Origin: a virus
Taxonomy: Duplodnaviria > Heunggongvirae > Uroviricota > Caudoviricetes
Reading direction: 5' to 3' (one strand)
DNA length: 55,334 bases
IMG/VR virus record: IMGVR_UViG_2737471838_000004
Coordinates: 1-55,334 of that record
Shown here: one piece after another, positions 37,082 through 47,540 of the stretch
How positions within the stretch are numbered: the first letter of the stretch is position 1
How the letters are laid out: every line of letters starts with the position of its first letter
Translations under genes and position numbers: made by a program
Notes under the pieces: model-generated
Seen by the model: the letters and a program-made list of their open reading frames with translations, nothing else
Told to the model about the DNA's origin: nothing
The model's database searches: none

Positions 37082-37240
37082 AATGCTCTCTCCTTTTCAG
37101 GTGATTTCTACGCATTTCAGCGCTGCCGGATTTTTAAAGAGCATTTCGTTTGCTTGAAGTATACAAAATGGATACACCATAACAAGACAAAAAGCGCCAT
37201 TATGTGATCCGCATCACGCAATGACGCCATTTTGTAAATT

Positions 37241-39793: not shown

Positions 39794-40045
39794 TTAAAAA
39801 GGATCATCCCAATCTGGCGCGGCAGTCCAGCAAAACCCGATAAATGCACTAACCGTTAATAAAGCGCGCCCTGCGGCAAGGATCTCGCCTATTTCGTTAA
39901 ATTCAGGCAGTGACCACGTAATAAACATTGCCCCCAGCATAATAACAACGATAACAGCCATGAACGCCAGGAAAACAAAAAGCGTAGCTAAAAGCCACGC
40001 TCCCAACCAGTTTAAAAAGCTCTTAACCATTTTAAACGTCCTCAA
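39794..40045 (-). CDS. small membrane protein
   Basis: 83 aa with two hydrophobic helices. Confidence 0.4.
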   Translation of the reverse strand: MRTFKMVKSFLNWLGAWLLATLFVFLAFMAVIVVIMLGAMFITWSLPEFNEIGEILAAGRALLTVSAFIGFCWTAAPDWDDPF

Positions 40046-40235
40046 TCACCCCGTCTTTTACACGCTCTTTAATATCCCAAACGTGAGGCTTGCATATTTC
40101 CTGATAATAGTGATCTGGCCTGCTGCCAAAATACCATTTGCCATCCATATAAAAATAAACGCCAGAAAAATTTCCTGGCGCTGCCTTTGTTGCTGATTCT
40201 GGAATTTTCCATTCTTTATAGTGTTTAAACTTCAT
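40032..40235 (-). CDS. hypothetical protein
   Basis: 67-aa ORF. Confidence 0.35.
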   Translation of the reverse strand: MKFKHYKEWKIPESATKAAPGNFSGVYFYMDGKWYFGSRPDHYYQEICKPHVWDIKERVKDGVIEDV

Positions 40236-42748: not shown

Positions 42749-43054
42749 TTAATCGTTAATAACCTGGCCCATACGACCGCGATATTTGCGCATACGTGGA
42801 TCGACATATTCAGGCCAGTGCATATCCGGTTTTCTTTGCAGTGGGTAAAAACTTGCTTGCCAGTTGTCGAACCATATTTGCTTTGCGTACAGGTCACTAA
42901 ATCTTTTTGCCATCCGTTCCGCTGCCGTGCCGCATAAAAAAAGCCCATGATCGATTTGATCACGGGCTTCTTTTAATACTTGCTCTTTTGTTCGCGGAAT
43001 CGGTGGCGCATTAAGATAATGCGTAGATTCTGCTTTTGCCATACTGTAAACCAA
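42749..43054 (-). CDS. hypothetical protein
   Basis: 101-aa ORF directly downstream of ssb; start uncertain. Confidence 0.4.
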   Translation of the reverse strand: MVYSMAKAESTHYLNAPPIPRTKEQVLKEARDQIDHGLFLCGTAAERMAKRFSDLYAKQIWFDNWQASFYPLQRKPDMHWPEYVDPRMRKYRGRMGQVIND

Positions 43055-43478
43055 TAGGACTGAATGGAATATCGTCGTCGAAGTCCATCGGCGGCGGATT
43101 ATTCCCGTTATTATTCTGCTGCTGCGGCGGCGCTTTCTGCTGCTGGCCTTGCTGCTGGCCTTGTTGGTTGACGTTCATGAATTCGAACTCATTAACCGCC
43201 ACTTCGACCGCCGTCCCCTTCGTGCCATCGTTCCGGTCAAACTGCCGAACATCCAGGCGACCGCTTACCACTATCTTTCCACCCTTGCGGATATGCGGCG
43301 CTAATTTTTCCGCACGCTCACCAAATACCAGACAAGTGATCCACATTACCCGCTTATTATCGCCGTAGCCATTCGTTACAGCTAACGGAAAACTACCAAT
43401 AGCTTTCCCGTTTTGCGTGTAGCGCACTTCCATATCATTACCGATATTCCCGCCCAGCGTGATTGAATTTAAACTCAT
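43011..43478 (-). CDS. ssb: single-stranded DNA-binding protein
   Basis: 155 aa; OB-fold region, Gln/Gly-rich linker and acidic C-terminal tail DFDDDIPF. Confidence 0.85.
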   Translation of the reverse strand: MSLNSITLGGNIGNDMEVRYTQNGKAIGSFPLAVTNGYGDNKRVMWITCLVFGERAEKLAPHIRKGGKIVVSGRLDVRQFDRNDGTKGTAVEVAVNEFEFMNVNQQGQQQGQQQKAPPQQQNNNGNNPPPMDFDDDIPFSPIGLQYGKSRIYALS

Positions 43479-44113
43479 TAATTGATCTCCCCGTTAAGCT
43501 CTTTTAAGCGAATGTCATAAACGTCTTTCGCTTTCTGTTGTTGTTCTGAATCCTTAGGCAATAGCTTCCAGCACTTGCCGAAGATCTCGCGTAACTTGTT
43601 AGCGTCAGGCGCTTTTGCTGCTGCATCACAGAAACGTGCTAATACTTCATCAGGATTTGGCGGCGCTTTCTGCTGCTGTTGTTTTGGCGGGTTTTTCTGC
43701 TGTCGCGGCTGTTGATTTGTCTGTTTCGCGTAAGCATCAGTATCAGGATCTTTTGCGTCATCAATGCAGAATAAGCCGTTCAAAGCATATTTTCGCGCGT
43801 AACTTGATGTCGCTCCTGTTAGCTGGCTTGCATCCATACCCTTCTTGCTTTCTTCCTCCCTGGCGTAAGCAGTTACCGCTATTACGTCTTCACCGTCGCT
43901 TAATGTTGCAGTTGCTTTCACATAATAGCGATTGCCGATCAGGACAATTTCATCACTTACAGTCAGCGTGATATTTTGAAGCAGTGGTTTAACCGCCTCT
44001 AGAATATCCTCCGCCGACCTGTAATTATACCCGCCAAAATTATTACGCTGATTTTTCGGCGCGTTCAGCGTTTGCTGAATCGTCCACAGCTTTTTGTGTA
44101 ACTCTGTTTTCAC
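43478..44113 (-). CDS. erf: Erf-family single-strand annealing protein
   Basis: 211 aa; N-terminal region with YNYRSAEDI typical of ERF recombinases; GTG start with AAGGAGA RBS; adjacent to ssb. Confidence 0.65.
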   Translation of the reverse strand: MKTELHKKLWTIQQTLNAPKNQRNNFGGYNYRSAEDILEAVKPLLQNITLTVSDEIVLIGNRYYVKATATLSDGEDVIAVTAYAREEESKKGMDASQLTGATSSYARKYALNGLFCIDDAKDPDTDAYAKQTNQQPRQQKNPPKQQQQKAPPNPDEVLARFCDAAAKAPDANKLREIFGKCWKLLPKDSEQQQKAKDVYDIRLKELNGEIN

Positions 44114-44262
44114 TATTTAATCTCCTTCGCTGTTAACACTACGTATAAGGCTTTATTCGCGGCGCTCCACATTTCGGCATCGTGAAGCATTTCCGCTACA
44201 GCCAGTTTGAATTGAAGCGCCTCGATAACCATAATGTCACCTCCTGCTGTTTACATTTTGTA

Positions 44263-44553
44263 TTAATGGTAGCGGACTTTATCCAGGGGTTTTTCCCCTA
44301 GTTGGCGTGGTTGCGTTGCGTGGTAGTAGTTGCCGCTTTCATTCTCCGTATACCATTTTACTGATCCTTTGCGACGTTCTTTAATGCTATTTGATTTGCA
44401 TCTTTCCTCGTTTGCAAAGCGAATAGCTTTATCCACATTGTCTGTTTTATTAATTGCAGGTGATGATTTTCTTTCGTTTTCTCTTTTTATTCTTCTGCGT
44501 TCCCTGGCATTCATTTTGCTATCACATTTGCCATACATAATTGTAACGGTCAT
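44263..44553 (-). CDS. N: N-like transcription antiterminator (arginine-rich motif)
   Basis: 96 aa; N-terminus MTVTIMYGK...NARERRRIKRENERK resembles the P22 N-type arginine-rich boxB-binding motif; AAGGAGA RBS; first gene downstream of pL-like promoter and nutL-like site. Confidence 0.55.
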   Translation of the reverse strand: MTVTIMYGKCDSKMNARERRRIKRENERKSSPAINKTDNVDKAIRFANEERCKSNSIKERRKGSVKWYTENESGNYYHATQPRQLGEKPLDKVRYH

Positions 44554-44608
44554 AATCTGATCTCCTTATATCCTTGATGATACTTAATAAAAATCATCTT
44601 CGTTAATT

Positions 44609-44646
44609 GCCGCACTTCCAGCGGCTGACCAGATTGTTAAAGAGCG
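44609..44646 (-). promoter_or_regulatory. nutL-like site: boxA (CGCTCTTTAACAA) + 8-nt spacer + boxB-like hairpin (GCCGC TGGAAGT GCGGC)
   Basis: read on minus strand in the leader between pL-like promoter and N; boxA matches the CGCTCTTTAACAA consensus. Confidence 0.45.
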
Positions 44647-44903
44647 GCTTAACATCTTTCAACTAATCCCGCAATCATCGCCGTTTCCGGTGTGACCCTG
44701 CTCACTCCAAGCAAGCTGACTCGTCGCCTTGCGTGCGGTTTCGTGGGGGATGTGACGCTTTAGACACCCCATGCGCCTTGTTATCAGTGCCGCTTTCGGT
44801 CCCCCAGCGGGGAGTTACTCCACGGTTGACAAGGTGTTAAGCCTGATTTTTTAAAGTGCCTGGAAGGTGCTTTTTTGTTTCCTGCCTCCTTCCTTTGATT
44901 CGC

Positions 44904-44932
44904 AATATACGCCCTGTGATATGTCGAGTCAA
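44904..44932 (-). promoter_or_regulatory. pL-like early-left promoter (TTGACT-17-TATATT)
   Basis: near-consensus sigma70 promoter downstream of the cI terminator, reading toward N; preceded by TATACAAAATGG. Confidence 0.5.
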
Positions 44933-45024
44933 TCCATTTTGTATACTTTTTTTAAAATATCTTCTATCTCATTGATTTTTAAATGATAAAAACCGTTTTT
45001 GGTTTACGTTTTGGTGCTTTCCGG

Positions 45025-45050
45025 GCAAAGAAAAGCCGCCATCCGGCGGC
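45025..45050 (-). terminator. rho-independent terminator after repressor gene
   Basis: GCCGCCGGATGGCGGC hairpin followed by TTTTCTTTG on the minus strand. Confidence 0.55.
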
Positions 45051-45056
45051 TAATGT

Positions 45057-45704
45057 TTATGGCAGGTTCACGATCTTCGCATCCACTACCACGCCTATGA
45101 TTTTAGATTCTGGATTCATAGGGATTGGCGGATACAGAGGATTGAGAGAACGTAAAAGCCTTTGACCTCCATCAATAACAAGCTGTTTAAACGTAGGCGT
45201 TTGCCCTTCCTCCAGTTGGGCTATAACCAGTTTTCCGTCAATAGCTGGCGCGTGCGGATCGACAAGTATCATCGTCCCCGCTGGTATACTCAATCCTTGC
45301 GGCGCGTTCATTGATTCGCCTTTAGCTACCAGCCAATAACTATCATCTGAACAAATAACGCTAGTCGTAACGTGTGGTAATGTTGATCGCCTTGTGTCTT
45401 CCATATTGTTTACTGCGTCCTTCCAGTCAACAACCGGGTAACTGCCTAAATCACGCGGCGGCGCACCCGGCAACGTGTTAGAAACAGAATCATCAATGAC
45501 CATTCCGTCATGAGTAACAGTGAATTGCCGACGACCAAGCGCCCGCATAATCCGCGCAATGTCTTCAAGATTTGGCTCACGGCGACCATTCAGCCAGTGT
45601 GATAAGCCGCCTTTCGTGATCCCCATGAGATCCGCCAATGAATCCTGGCTCATGCCTTGCGCACGCATAAGCTGCTTTGCTAAGTCATACCATTTTGTTT
45701 TCAT
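45057..45704 (-). CDS. cI: CI-like immunity repressor (HTH + S24 LexA-like autopeptidase domain)
   Basis: 215 aa; N-terminal HTH (QDSLADLMGITKGGLSHWLNGRR), C-terminal S24 motifs GESM and FKQL. Confidence 0.85.
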   Translation of the reverse strand: MKTKWYDLAKQLMRAQGMSQDSLADLMGITKGGLSHWLNGRREPNLEDIARIMRALGRRQFTVTHDGMVIDDSVSNTLPGAPPRDLGSYPVVDWKDAVNNMEDTRRSTLPHVTTSVICSDDSYWLVAKGESMNAPQGLSIPAGTMILVDPHAPAIDGKLVIAQLEEGQTPTFKQLVIDGGQRLLRSLNPLYPPIPMNPESKIIGVVVDAKIVNLP

Positions 45705-45870
45705 GTCGCTACCCTATAACCTCAAAAAGTTTGACGCAAGTCACAAAACGTATTTTTCAAGCCTTGATCTTAAAGCTCCATTCTGTAAACTTTCAGACAA
45801 GGTAAGACCATACTTGCAAGGATGCAAGAAAAAAGATAATGGAAAGCACAAAAAGGCACATACCTTAAAA

Positions 45871-45902
45871 GCTCTTTAAAAACCAGGTGTCGCTGCGAAG
45901 CG
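45871..45902 (+). promoter_or_regulatory. nutR-like site: boxA-like (GCTCTTTAAAAA) + 8-nt spacer + small GNRA-type hairpin
   Basis: in the cI/right-operon intergenic region upstream of the first plus-strand gene; weaker match than nutL. Confidence 0.3.
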
Positions 45903-46009
45903 AAAAACAAATATCACGCAACGGCGGGATCTGTTGAGCGGTCAGTCACTGCTATCTAATGCTAATGGGATACCCGCCCGCGCGTTCACTCTAATCATAG
46001 GAGAAAAAT

Positions 46010-46255
46010 ATGTATTACGTGCGCAAGGCTTTTGATATTCGCCTGAATAACAATGATCCGGCGCAAAAACTCATCTTAATTGCACTGGCAACAAAGGCCG
46101 GATGCAACGGTAAAAGCGAAGTAACGCCGGAAGAGATCGCTGAAATGTGCGAAATTTCGTTACGAGATACTATCTCTGCACTTCATCAACTGAAAAGAAG
46201 CGGCCTGATCAGCCAGCTGCCAGGTTTCTTCTGTGTTTATCAGTTGATGTTCTAG
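46010..46255 (+). CDS. small HTH protein, first gene of rightward operon (possible Cro-like / initiator-N-domain paralog)
   Basis: 81 aa; AGGAG RBS; resembles N-terminal HTH domain of the following O-like protein. Confidence 0.45.
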   Translation: MYYVRKAFDIRLNNNDPAQKLILIALATKAGCNGKSEVTPEEIAEMCEISLRDTISALHQLKRSGLISQLPGFFCVYQLMF

Positions 46256-46276
46256 TTTATCAGGAGGCCAATATTT

Positions 46277-47305
46277 ATGAGTATGCGGCTAATGGTCGAG
46301 GTATTCCATACTGAGGTCGGGAACCCAATGCACAAACTAGTGCTGTTGAAGTTAGCTGATAACGCTAATGATAACGGCGAGTGTTACCCTTCTTACCATC
46401 ACATAGCAAAGGAATGCGAGATCAGTAAGAGTACAGCAATGAGGGCTGTCGACGCACTTTGTGAAAAAGGTCTATTGATTAAACAACCAAGATACTTAAT
46501 CGGAGGAAAGGAGCAAACGAGTAACTTCTATGTGATAGTTCTGCCATCATTGCAGGGTAGTGTCACAGTGACACCGGGGGTAGTGTCAGAGAGACACCAG
46601 GGTAGTGTCACAGTGACACCGGGGGTAGTGTCAGAGAGACACCAGGGTAGTGTCACAGTGACACCGGGGGTAGTGTCAGAGAGACACCCTAATCAGTCAT
46701 ATATAACCAGTAAAGAGAACATTAAGAACAATACACTTCGTGTATTGGAAAAAGACGAGTCTATCAGCGAAGAAGATCGGGTGGCTGATTTGGCAGCGTC
46801 GCGCGTACTCGATCACTATAACAACAAGTTTAATAGCAAGCATAAGGAGAAAAAATACTTTGTTAACCTACTGAAGAAGACAAAAACACGAGGCGCATAT
46901 ACTGAAGAAGATTTGATCATGGTTATCGACTGGATAGCGGAAACATGGTCGTTTAAACCGGAACCGATAAAGATCGCCAGGGTAAGCCGCTTTGATGAAT
47001 ACCGGGCAAAGGCTGAACAATGGCGAAGAGTTACAGCTACTGTAAACGCTGCCGATGTGGTGGAAGAGTTTAACATCACGTTTGATGGACTGTTGCCACC
47101 TGCCGAACTTGATCGTGATCTTGAACGCAAGATCTATGCGTTCACTGACTACCTGAAAGACAAAAGCATTAACGGCTTTATCGCCTACTTTGAAGCGTTC
47201 AAAAACACGGCTTCAGATTTTTACTTCGGCAATGGCTTCACTGCGACACTTGATTTCCTGCTTAAACCAAAAACGCTACGTGATACACGCGCTGGCGCTC
47301 TTTGA
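46277..47305 (+). CDS. replication initiation protein (lambda O-like) containing internal iteron array
   Basis: 342 aa; N-terminal HTH domain, linker encoded by 3 x 45-bp direct repeats (QGSVTVTPGVVSERH x3), C-terminal domain. Confidence 0.7.
   Translation: MSMRLMVEVFHTEVGNPMHKLVLLKLADNANDNGECYPSYHHIAKECEISKSTAMRAVDALCEKGLLIKQPRYLIGGKEQTSNFYVIVLPSLQGSVTVTPGVVSERHQGSVTVTPGVVSERHQGSVTVTPGVVSERHPNQSYITSKENIKNNTLRVLEKDESISEEDRVADLAASRVLDHYNNKFNSKHKEKKYFVNLLKKTKTRGAYTEEDLIMVIDWIAETWSFKPEPIKIARVSRFDEYRAKAEQWRRVTATVNAADVVEEFNITFDGLLPPAELDRDLERKIYAFTDYLKDKSINGFIAYFEAFKNTASDFYFGNGFTATLDFLLKPKTLRDTRAGAL
46553..46687 (+). repeat. origin iterons: 3 tandem 45-bp repeats, each two about 22-bp sub-iterons with internal dyad GTGTCAC..GTGACAC / GTGTC..GACAC
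   Basis: perfect tandem copies of CAGGGTAGTGTCACAGTGACACCGGGGGTAGTGTCAGAGAGACAC inside the O-like gene, followed by an AT-rich stretch. Confidence 0.8.
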
Positions 47306-47438
47306 CCAACCACGATACACAAAAACCCAAAATAACCAACCAAGCAAGCTCACCAGCGAGCTAAATTGCATTGGGTGCTACACTTGCATACCTTTAGATG
47401 TTTATCTCGTTAGAGAGCGTTTTAGAGAGGATTTTAAA

Positions 47439-47540
47439 ATGGACGGTAAACACATTTTCGCCCTGGCTTTTGCCATCGCTGCTGCAATCGCTGTTAACGT
47501 AGCGTTGTTCGGCGGTTTGTTCCTTCTTGTCAATCCATAA
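47439..47540 (+). CDS. possible small membrane peptide (33 aa)
   Basis: hand-identified MDGKHIFALAFAIAAAIAVNVALFGGLFLLVNP with GAGAGG RBS. Confidence 0.3.
   Translation: MDGKHIFALAFAIAAAIAVNVALFGGLFLLVNP

Follow-up and report, generated by a model that had tools for sequence, protein, structure and literature searches.

What kind of control region lies between the repressor gene and the first early genes of the tailed phage in IMG/VR record IMGVR_UViG_2737471838_000004, and why is its leader so long? The stretch of DNA analysed here, which we call the window, comprises the 55,334 nt of this record, and the region in question occupies positions 44263-44932, with the control module entirely on the minus strand. 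A preliminary description had read it from the letters alone as a promoter, a long leader with a nut-like site and an N-like antiterminator. All the sequence features that it listed were found where it had placed them, and its recognition of a complete promoter-nut-N module from raw sequence is a useful positive control. Judging from sequence comparison, the region is very probably the early-operon control module of a mEp021-like (mEpimmI) temperate coliphage, working in the manner of lambda and P22 N. The promoter-nut-Gp17 system itself is not new, as it has been described in a relative with 94% identity and compared across 48 genomes, and the only undescribed part is an optional, highly conserved block of 217 nt in the leader, upstream of nutR1.

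A control module of the mEp021 type

The 900 bp around the module were 94.4% identical at the nucleotide level to phage mEp021 and 91-96% identical to mEp010, mEp515, mEp554, mEp013, mEp044, MagusPhagus and 35 E. coli prophages. Furthermore, 25 kb of the window matched mEp044 and mEp021 with around 89.5% identity over 72-84% of the length. Because of these similarities, in the control region as well as over 25 kb, we take the window to be a mEpimmI-type temperate coliphage. The gene order is also common to the window and mEp021, namely repressor, terminator, promoter, leader, nut, gp17, erf and ssb; thus identity, the synteny of repressor, gp17, erf and ssb and the genome-scale similarity all place it in the mEpimmI Gp17 family, that is, in the mEp021 group. 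The comparisons below were made on a set of around 80 loci, which comprised annotated phages and prophages (L001-L011), contigs with a divergent Gp17 (L012-L014), 44 IMG/VR loci and 24 metagenome loci.

According to Negrete-Mendez et al. 2025 (PMC11893012), citing Valencia-Toxqui et al. 2023, Gp17 of mEp021 is a lambda-N-like early antiterminator that acts through nutR1, nutL and nutR2. These authors put both nutR1 and nutL on the upstream side of a gene, gp17 and the repressor gene respectively, and nutR2 on the downstream side of gp32, and report that 48 genomes keep gp17 and the nut sites and that the mEp phage group needs host Nus factors. The system of the window is that of mEp021, including all three nut sites and the 217-nt block; a few substitutions distinguish its promoter spacer and its Gp17. 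The primary work on antitermination by mEp021 Gp17 is reportedly that of Valencia-Toxqui et al. 2023 in Arch Virol 168:92.

The gp17-like gene (44263..44553, minus strand) encodes 96 aa and is the first open reading frame (ORF) after the promoter. Its Shine-Dalgarno sequence, AAGGAG, was read from the sequence at 44562..44567 (minus strand) and is annotated in mEp021 too. The protein was 95.8% identical to mEp021 Gp17 and matched PHROG 271, 'anti-termination protein N-like', over residues 2-95 (E=1.8e-11, 45.2 bits), which supports the 96-aa N-like ORF that had been proposed after the leader (44553..44263). An arginine-rich motif, NARERRRIKRENERK, occupies residues 15-29; R17, R20 and R24 are invariant in the Gp17 family and R19 and R21 nearly so, and PMC11893012 gives arginines 17, 19, 20 and 24 of Gp17 as fully conserved. 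The family is narrow. A large protein database has 52 homologues, and every one of them comes from E. coli or a gut metagenome; a search of 185,579 species-representative genomes found none, and tblastn with Gp17 gave matches in the mEp group only.

Upstream of gp17 the leader carries boxA (44634..44646, minus strand; CGCTCTTTAACAA), an exact match to the consensus, and after a spacer of 8 nt the boxB hairpin GCCGC-UGGAAGU-GCGGC (44609..44625, minus strand), whose stem has a pairing probability of 1.0. Both elements stand as first described, at 44646..44634 and 44625..44609, and since the ORF is the homologue of mEp021 gp17, which has nutR1 upstream, they correspond to the published nutR1. The exact 12-mer GCTCTTTAACAA occurs a single time in the window. 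With up to one mismatch there are three matches (44634, minus; 37131, minus; 45871, plus) against around 0.24 expected by our own calculation, and each of the three lies on an early-transcribed strand with a GNRA-type hairpin 7-8 nt further on.

The preliminary description had made its reading depend on the conservation of boxA and boxB in relatives. We found that boxA is kept in every lineage, with limited variation. mEp021 and most of the relatives with a long leader have CGCTCATTAACAA instead of the consensus CGCTCTTTAACAA of the window (29 of the 59 tabulated loci, which is the majority of the long forms); the other variants are CATTCTTTAACAA and, in all the forms with a short leader, TGCTCTTTAA(C/T)AA. 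The exact consensus and a long leader come together, among the loci compared, in this window only. Regarding boxB, its stem covaries, as we found five types (GCCGC/GCGGC, GCUAC/GUAGC, GCACU/AGUGC, UCGC/GCGA and UGCAC/GUGCA), all of them paired, with the U-GNRA-U/A loop constant across the five, and the lineages with a different boxB also have a divergent arginine-rich motif in Gp17. Therefore, as boxA and boxB are conserved across relatives, the N/nut interpretation stands.

An arginine-rich motif at the N position is common to N and Nun. HK022 Nun is such a protein, and it acts against other phages; the 96-aa protein might likewise be a Nun-like exclusion or termination factor instead of an antiterminator, and its weak similarity to the classical N proteins would fit this. 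However, we consider a Nun-like factor hardly credible, because the genome itself has three cognate boxA-boxB sites on its early transcripts and because the early antitermination of mEp021 has been attributed to Gp17 (PMC11893012). The changes of boxB in lineages that also have divergent Gp17 arginine-rich motifs argue against it too. An N-type antiterminator is thus the supported reading of the 96-aa protein, with early antitermination as a probable function taken from the literature on mEp021 Gp17.

Immediately upstream of the control region lies the cI-like repressor gene (45057..45704, minus strand), which encodes 215 aa with HTH_3 and Peptidase_S24 domains and is a homologue of mEp021 Rep021/gp15, the repressor that gives immunity (PMC11893012, section 3.3). 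The repressor transcript has an intrinsic terminator (45025..45051, minus strand), with the hairpin AGCCGCC-GGAT-GGCGGCT at 45051..45034 followed by the T-run TTTTCTTTG. It is kept in 12 relatives and annotated as a terminator in mEp021 and other mEp records, and the control region does lie downstream of it, as had been noticed. Next comes the sigma-70 early promoter (44904..44932, minus strand), TTGACT-17-TATATT, with 10 of the 12 consensus positions and a predicted start near 44897. When the short forms were compared together with 28 distinct long-leader sequences, the -35 and -10 hexamers hardly varied, in contrast to 8-9 of the 17 spacer positions; the exceptions are CTGACT in L028 and, in two divergent lineages, TTGACA-17-TATAGT (L012) and TTGACA-17-TATATT (L013). 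Therefore, it is the conservation of the hexamers around a variable spacer, and not the consensus match alone, that supports the near-consensus promoter proposed at 44932..44904. From its position we infer that this promoter is under repressor control, and transcription would start near 44897.

The region had been called early-left, pL-like and nutL-like. This holds as an analogy with lambda and no further, because the mEp literature names the site nutR1 and draws the operon rightward.

Several points weigh against the module as read here. The promoter match alone is not significant, with 7 promoter-like sites in 3 kb against 4.6 expected, and no convincing shared palindrome that could be a repressor operator was found by eye or by a repeat search. 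The match of the 96-aa protein to Pfam PF25694 N_peptide reached 17.0 bits (E=0.0086), under the gathering threshold of 27.9 bits; hhalign against P22-type N gave a probability of 37% over 46 columns, and no PDB sequence matched the protein. Consequently, the arginine-rich motif that had been called P22 N-type keeps only a part of this name: a weak N-terminal resemblance exists, as BLASTP against P22-type N (Salmonella phage SE21, L095) aligned the first 20 residues only, with E=0.006 and the pattern MTV-I-YGK...NA[KR].RR, but homology was not demonstrated. On the positive side, the features of an N-type module are found together here, namely a promoter-proximal small basic protein with an arginine-rich motif, a nut site, compensatory change in boxB and downstream terminator-like hairpins, and the identity to mEp021, the conservation and the covariation support the reading as promoter, nut site and N-like antiterminator.

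The module would work as follows. The sigma-70 promoter just past the repressor terminator would start a leader of around 344 nt, whose nut site (boxA, 8 nt, boxB hairpin) would be transcribed 55 nt before gp17. The Gp17-like protein of 96 aa would bind the GNRA-type boxB loop by means of its N-terminal arginine-rich motif, and would act with the host Nus factors that are recruited at boxA to make RNA polymerase resistant to terminators. The modified polymerase would read through the terminators of the operon, for example near 40.0-40.2 kb, and of the two further nut sites one would act on the other early transcript and one on the distal genes of the gp17 operon.

The likeness to lambda N-nutL and P22 gene 24-nutL is found at several levels. 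The operon read away from the repressor gene begins with a small basic protein that has its arginine-rich motif at the N-terminal end, its N-terminus (MTV.I.YGK...NA[KR]..RR) resembles P22-type N, and boxA is followed by a short spacer and a 5-bp boxB hairpin with a GNRA-like loop. Dependence on Nus factors is reported as well for the mEp group (PMC11893012). However, there are three nut sites here instead of two, and Gp17 cannot be recognised as belonging to Pfam N_peptide. Its boxB has a U-GNRA(N)-U loop, whereas lambda or P22 have a pentaloop closed by U-A, and boxA matches the rrn consensus, whereas that of lambda is CGCTCTTA. The arrangement differs too: in a P22-type phage nutL comes shortly after pL, with around 165 nt from nut to the ATG, whereas here around 250 nt precede boxA and 55 nt follow boxB.

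Three side observations concern the promoter and nutR1. The motif TCCATTTTGTATAC and its close variants (CCATT[TC]TGTA[AT]AC) are over-represented in the window, with 32 matches at up to 3 mismatches against 6.65 expected, and none of 100 shuffles had as many. The sites include 44933-44946 (plus), 37159-37172 (minus) and 45778-45791 (plus), together with around 30 further ones. One exact copy, on the strand opposite to the gp17 promoter, adjoins its -35, and another makes up both the spacer and the -10 of a promoter-like site. In the region of the rightward early promoter there is a variant that does not change among 15 relatives; the motif may be a phage-specific promoter element or the binding site of a regulator.

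The second observation is that the mosaic breakpoints of relatives fall at boxA, around window positions 44627-44645, that is, boxA and its spacer (query positions 456-474). Some prophages match from the repressor gene to boxA only and others from boxA into gp17 only, and the conserved nut site seems to be a recombination junction between modules. Thirdly, the boxA-boxB spacer AAUCUGGUC (44626-44634, minus strand) can pair with GAUCAGAUU (44554-44562, minus strand), just 5' of the gp17 AUG, in a 9-bp helix present in the minimum free energy fold. Divergent lineages could form a shorter AAUC/GAUU version, and no compensatory change of the AAUCUGGUC/GAUCAGAUU helix was seen among relatives. Through this predicted pairing the translation of gp17 could depend on whether nut is occupied, a coupling that has been proposed for lambda N.

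Two forms of the leader

The leader measures around 344 nt from the predicted start near 44897 to the ATG at 44553, somewhat more than the 330 nt first given, and it is indeed unusually long. The reason is a block of 217 nt (44661..44877, minus strand) that sits between the promoter and boxA, with a conserved core of 190 nt at 44850..44661. The preceding purine-rich segment of the leader (44878..44897, minus strand) is common to the short-leader relatives and variable, with a nucleotide diversity (pi) of 0.045 for 44851-44903.

In the around 80 loci the leader has two discrete states, as the block is present in about two thirds of them and cleanly absent from the rest. The distance from the -10 to the ATG is 134-136 nt in the short forms, including mEp044, mEp554 and mEp013, and 347-351 nt in the long ones; in the RM9245 type it is 322-325 nt, with the block present and a shorter segment after boxB. 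The 24 metagenome loci showed the same two states only. GAAA is found on both sides of the block, and in the short forms a different sequence, of 16 nt, leads directly into boxA. The block of the window is 97.8% identical to that of mEp021, and its GC content is 56%, against 40% in gp17. The available part of the published mEp work mentions neither the dimorphism of long and short leaders nor the nature of 'gp16', an ORF annotated inside the block which is discussed below.

Long and short forms occur with identical gp17 alleles and with identical repressor 3' ends, and for 16-17 of 75 sequences the nearest neighbour is of the other leader type. Therefore, the block assorts as an independent module. 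Furthermore, it is confined to mEpimmI phages and prophages, once per genome, as judged from two exact-pattern scans of IMG/VR and from distant-mode blastn searches that covered phages, plasmids and 5,426 E. coli genomes. Two extra 18-mer matches (L093 and L094) were discarded as chance ones inside unrelated coding sequence, and there is no second copy in the window.

The Rfam search that had been proposed for the leader was done with Rfam 15 on 43000-47500 and then on 44540-44910 alone, and gave nothing significant. The best match inside the block was CRISPR-DR18 (E=1.6, 17.5 bits against a gathering score of 50), and a weak match to StyR-44 appeared because boxA is rrn-like. A scan for tRNA and tmRNA found none. 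We also noticed a boxA-like sequence, GCACTTTAAAAA, with 2 mismatches at the 5' end of the block core (44848-44859, minus strand); matches with 2 mismatches are not above chance in the window (11 against 6.1 expected). Outside the block, between boxB and the ribosome-binding site, there is an AU-rich hairpin (44576..44598, minus strand; GAUGAU-N11-AUCAUC), which is absent in the RM9245-type and divergent lineages.

Fold of the block and its possible role

Single-sequence and consensus folds gave a domain closed by a 9-bp helix and enclosing five or six hairpins. The closing helix joins 44843..44835 (GGCUUAACA) with 44654..44646 (UGUUAAGCC), on the minus strand, and its 3' strand adjoins boxA; boxA is predicted to stay largely free of pairing, with boxB fully formed. 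The closing helix is invariant but for one breaking change, and thus offers no covariation. The only helix of the block with compensatory changes is the hairpin CUUGCUU-GGAGU-GAGCAGG (44697..44715, minus strand). In the RM9245 lineage the hairpin 44715..44697 reads AUCACU...AGUGGU, with three pairs changed on both sides and all of them still paired, and nine sequences have U-G instead of U-A. Another hairpin, CCG-GAAA-CGG (44681..44690, minus strand), reads CGCCG-GGAA-CGGCG in the majority variant; the GNRA loop of 44690..44681 is retained (GAAA to GGAA), and an A-to-G change gives one more pair. The other common substitutions of the block are compatible with the fold, being located in loops, replacing G-U by G-C, creating an additional pair or retaining the GNRA loop, whereas the changes that break pairs are singletons or doubletons only. 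The G-U pairs of the helices favour the strand in the sense of the leader. Taken as a model, the block is most likely a self-contained folded RNA domain of the sense strand, which would leave boxA single-stranded and boxB folded.

The structure prediction that had been suggested thus yielded a closed multi-hairpin domain, but thermodynamic support is modest, with z=-2.55 for the whole leader and z=-1.22 for the block alone. The description of the leader as rich in GC hairpins is right for the inserted block, with its 56% GC. The suggestion that the leader leaves room for additional RNA-based regulation becomes more precise, as the extra length corresponds to a discrete, optional and highly conserved block upstream of nut, but regulation is not proven.

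Among the 36 long-leader sequences the core of the block is very uniform, with pi=0.0097 and 13 segregating sites out of 190. This compares with 47 of 96 at the third codon positions of gp17 (p=8e-16), 82 of 158 at those of the repressor, 26 of 192 at positions 1 and 2 of gp17 (p=0.04) and 11 of 53 in the adjacent 5' leader (p=0.007); the variability of the core is comparable to that of positions 1 and 2 of cI.

The uniformity has a simpler explanation, namely a neutral and fairly recent insertion that is tolerated and has been spread among relatives by recombination, so that its low diversity reflects youth. We consider this quite possible. One third of the relatives lack the block, including the plaque-forming isolates mEp044, mEp554 and mEp013, it has been shuffled between backgrounds, no homologue of it was found outside the mEpimmI group, it folds no better than shuffles and nearly all its helices are invariant. 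However, diversity is uneven along the insert: the first 27 nt or so are variable whereas the 190-nt core lies below positions 1 and 2 of gp17, which argues against youth alone as the reason for the low diversity of the core. Furthermore, the patch of 7 substitutions in RM9245 keeps its hairpin fully paired, which points to an older, diverged copy and to selection on pairing, and all the pair-breaking changes are singletons or doubletons.

Some of these facts have to be counted against a functional domain in any case. The covariation comes from one lineage and one helix, with the remaining helices invariant, the block alone folds no better than shuffled sequences, plaque-forming phages can dispense with it and its low diversity could come in part from a young insertion spread by recombination. 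We therefore keep both a functional sense-strand RNA domain and a tolerated recent insertion as live explanations, and favour the domain by a modest edge.

The conservation of the block might also be due to a protein. An ORF of 37 aa, 'gp16' (44659..44772, minus strand), is annotated in mEp021, with a putative ribosome-binding site, and in relatives such as mEp010 and others, and its 37 codons, initiated by ATG, are intact in nearly all the long-leader relatives; the leader would then be a two-gene transcript. Nevertheless, we found 12 nonsynonymous against 4 synonymous codon changes and the loss of the stop codon in one relative (L052), and therefore the constraint on the block is not for a gp16 protein. 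The compensatory patch of the RNA alters 5 residues, Pfam and PHROG gave no match, and nucleotide conservation runs well past the ORF on its 5' side. The ORF is absent from all the short-leader phages. We rejected it on the substitution pattern and regard a small protein gene as most improbable; gp16 is most likely not a gene, and its annotation in the relatives should probably be corrected.

The opposite strand offers another alternative, an antisense small RNA (sRNA) of the plus strand that would have its 5' end inside the block or close to the start codon of gp17, terminate at the hairpin 44853..44873 with TTTTTTGTTT and repress gp17 or nut by pairing. The plus strand has promoter-like sites at 44528..44556 (10/12) and 44649..44678 (9/12) and the terminator-like site at 44853..44873, and in the window this hairpin is more stable on the plus strand than on the other (-8.1 against -2.9 kcal/mol). 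However, apart from the window just two variants have it in a stable form, whereas the majority variant is among those that have lost it (around -3 kcal/mol, no stem). In addition, the candidate -10 becomes CATGAT in many relatives, and the G-U pairs of the conserved helices fit the sense strand, as they would be C-A mismatches in the antisense. An antisense sRNA is accordingly improbable, and the version with a plus-strand terminator was rejected because its hairpin is not conserved. A further idea, a CsrA sponge based on GGA motifs, was dropped after a hand count (11 GGA in the leader against around 8 expected).

Coming back to the sense-strand domain, our best guess, at the level of a model, is a cis-acting modulator of the use of nut or of the expression of gp17. 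The segment UGUUAAG directly 5' of boxA has two possible partners, the 5' strand of the block, GGCUUAACA, and boxA (CUUUAACA). With that 5' strand blocked in silico, the best fold sequestered boxA, at a cost of 12.3 kcal/mol. The basis of such a nut-gating switch is sequence complementarity alone. More specifically, then, the block may be a new phage-specific cis-regulatory domain that gates nut by hiding boxA when it is disturbed, or else the source of a stable trans-acting sRNA excised from the leader; we put these forward tentatively, as rather doubtful proposals. If a factor or condition did disturb the domain, boxA would be hidden and N-type antitermination of the early operon would be off, and a regulatory RNA with this effect on nut would be moderately interesting. 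Natural phages of one immunity group exist with a long leader (mEp021, mEp010) and with a short one (mEp044, mEp554, mEp013), and therefore the effect of an RNA domain placed before nut on N-type antitermination can be tested directly.

The put RNAs of HK022 are cis-acting structured RNAs in early leaders. As a concept, and for the block only, the comparison is apt, since the put RNAs and, as predicted, the block are structured RNAs just downstream of an early promoter in a transcript regulated at elongation. However, the block has around three times the length of a put site, phages can do without it, and it is found together with an N/nut system that depends on a protein. A search for sequence similarity to any other phage found none.

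Other nut sites and neighbouring features

The second nut site, the equivalent of nutL (45871..45903, plus strand), lies on the rightward early transcript, with boxA GCTCTTTAAAAA and boxB UCGCU-GCGA-AGCGA, and is invariant in 15 relatives. Downstream of it (45923-45975, plus strand), the leader of the rightward early operon has GGCGGGAT...ATACCCGCC, which could form an 8-bp stem with a loop of around 40 nt, and this possible stem is conserved in 15 relatives too. The third site, the equivalent of nutR2 (37110..37142, minus strand), has boxA GCTCTTTAAAAA and boxB GCGC-UGAAAU-GCGU and lies 7.5 kb downstream of the first one. Around 15 nt upstream of its boxA there is a promoter-like sequence, TTGTTA-16-TATACT (37158-37185, minus strand), and this site may have its own promoter and not depend just on read-through from 7.5 kb upstream.

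Inside the gp17 operon there are two strong hairpins of the intrinsic terminator type (40182..40158 and 40004..39978, minus strand), with 11 and 12 stem pairs respectively and each followed by a T-run. In the model they are candidate targets of antitermination. Directly after gp17, a 39-aa ORF (44116-44232, minus strand) matches PHROG 34942, of unknown function (E=4e-28), and weakly the Kil-like phrog_2055 (E=0.0015).

Finally, on the plus strand, three perfect tandem repeats of 45 nt, or around six units of 23 nt (46553-46688), lie inside a putative replication initiator ORF (46277..47305) and encode GSVTVTPGVVSERHQ three times. By analogy, this looks like an iteron-type origin inside the initiator gene, as in lambda O.

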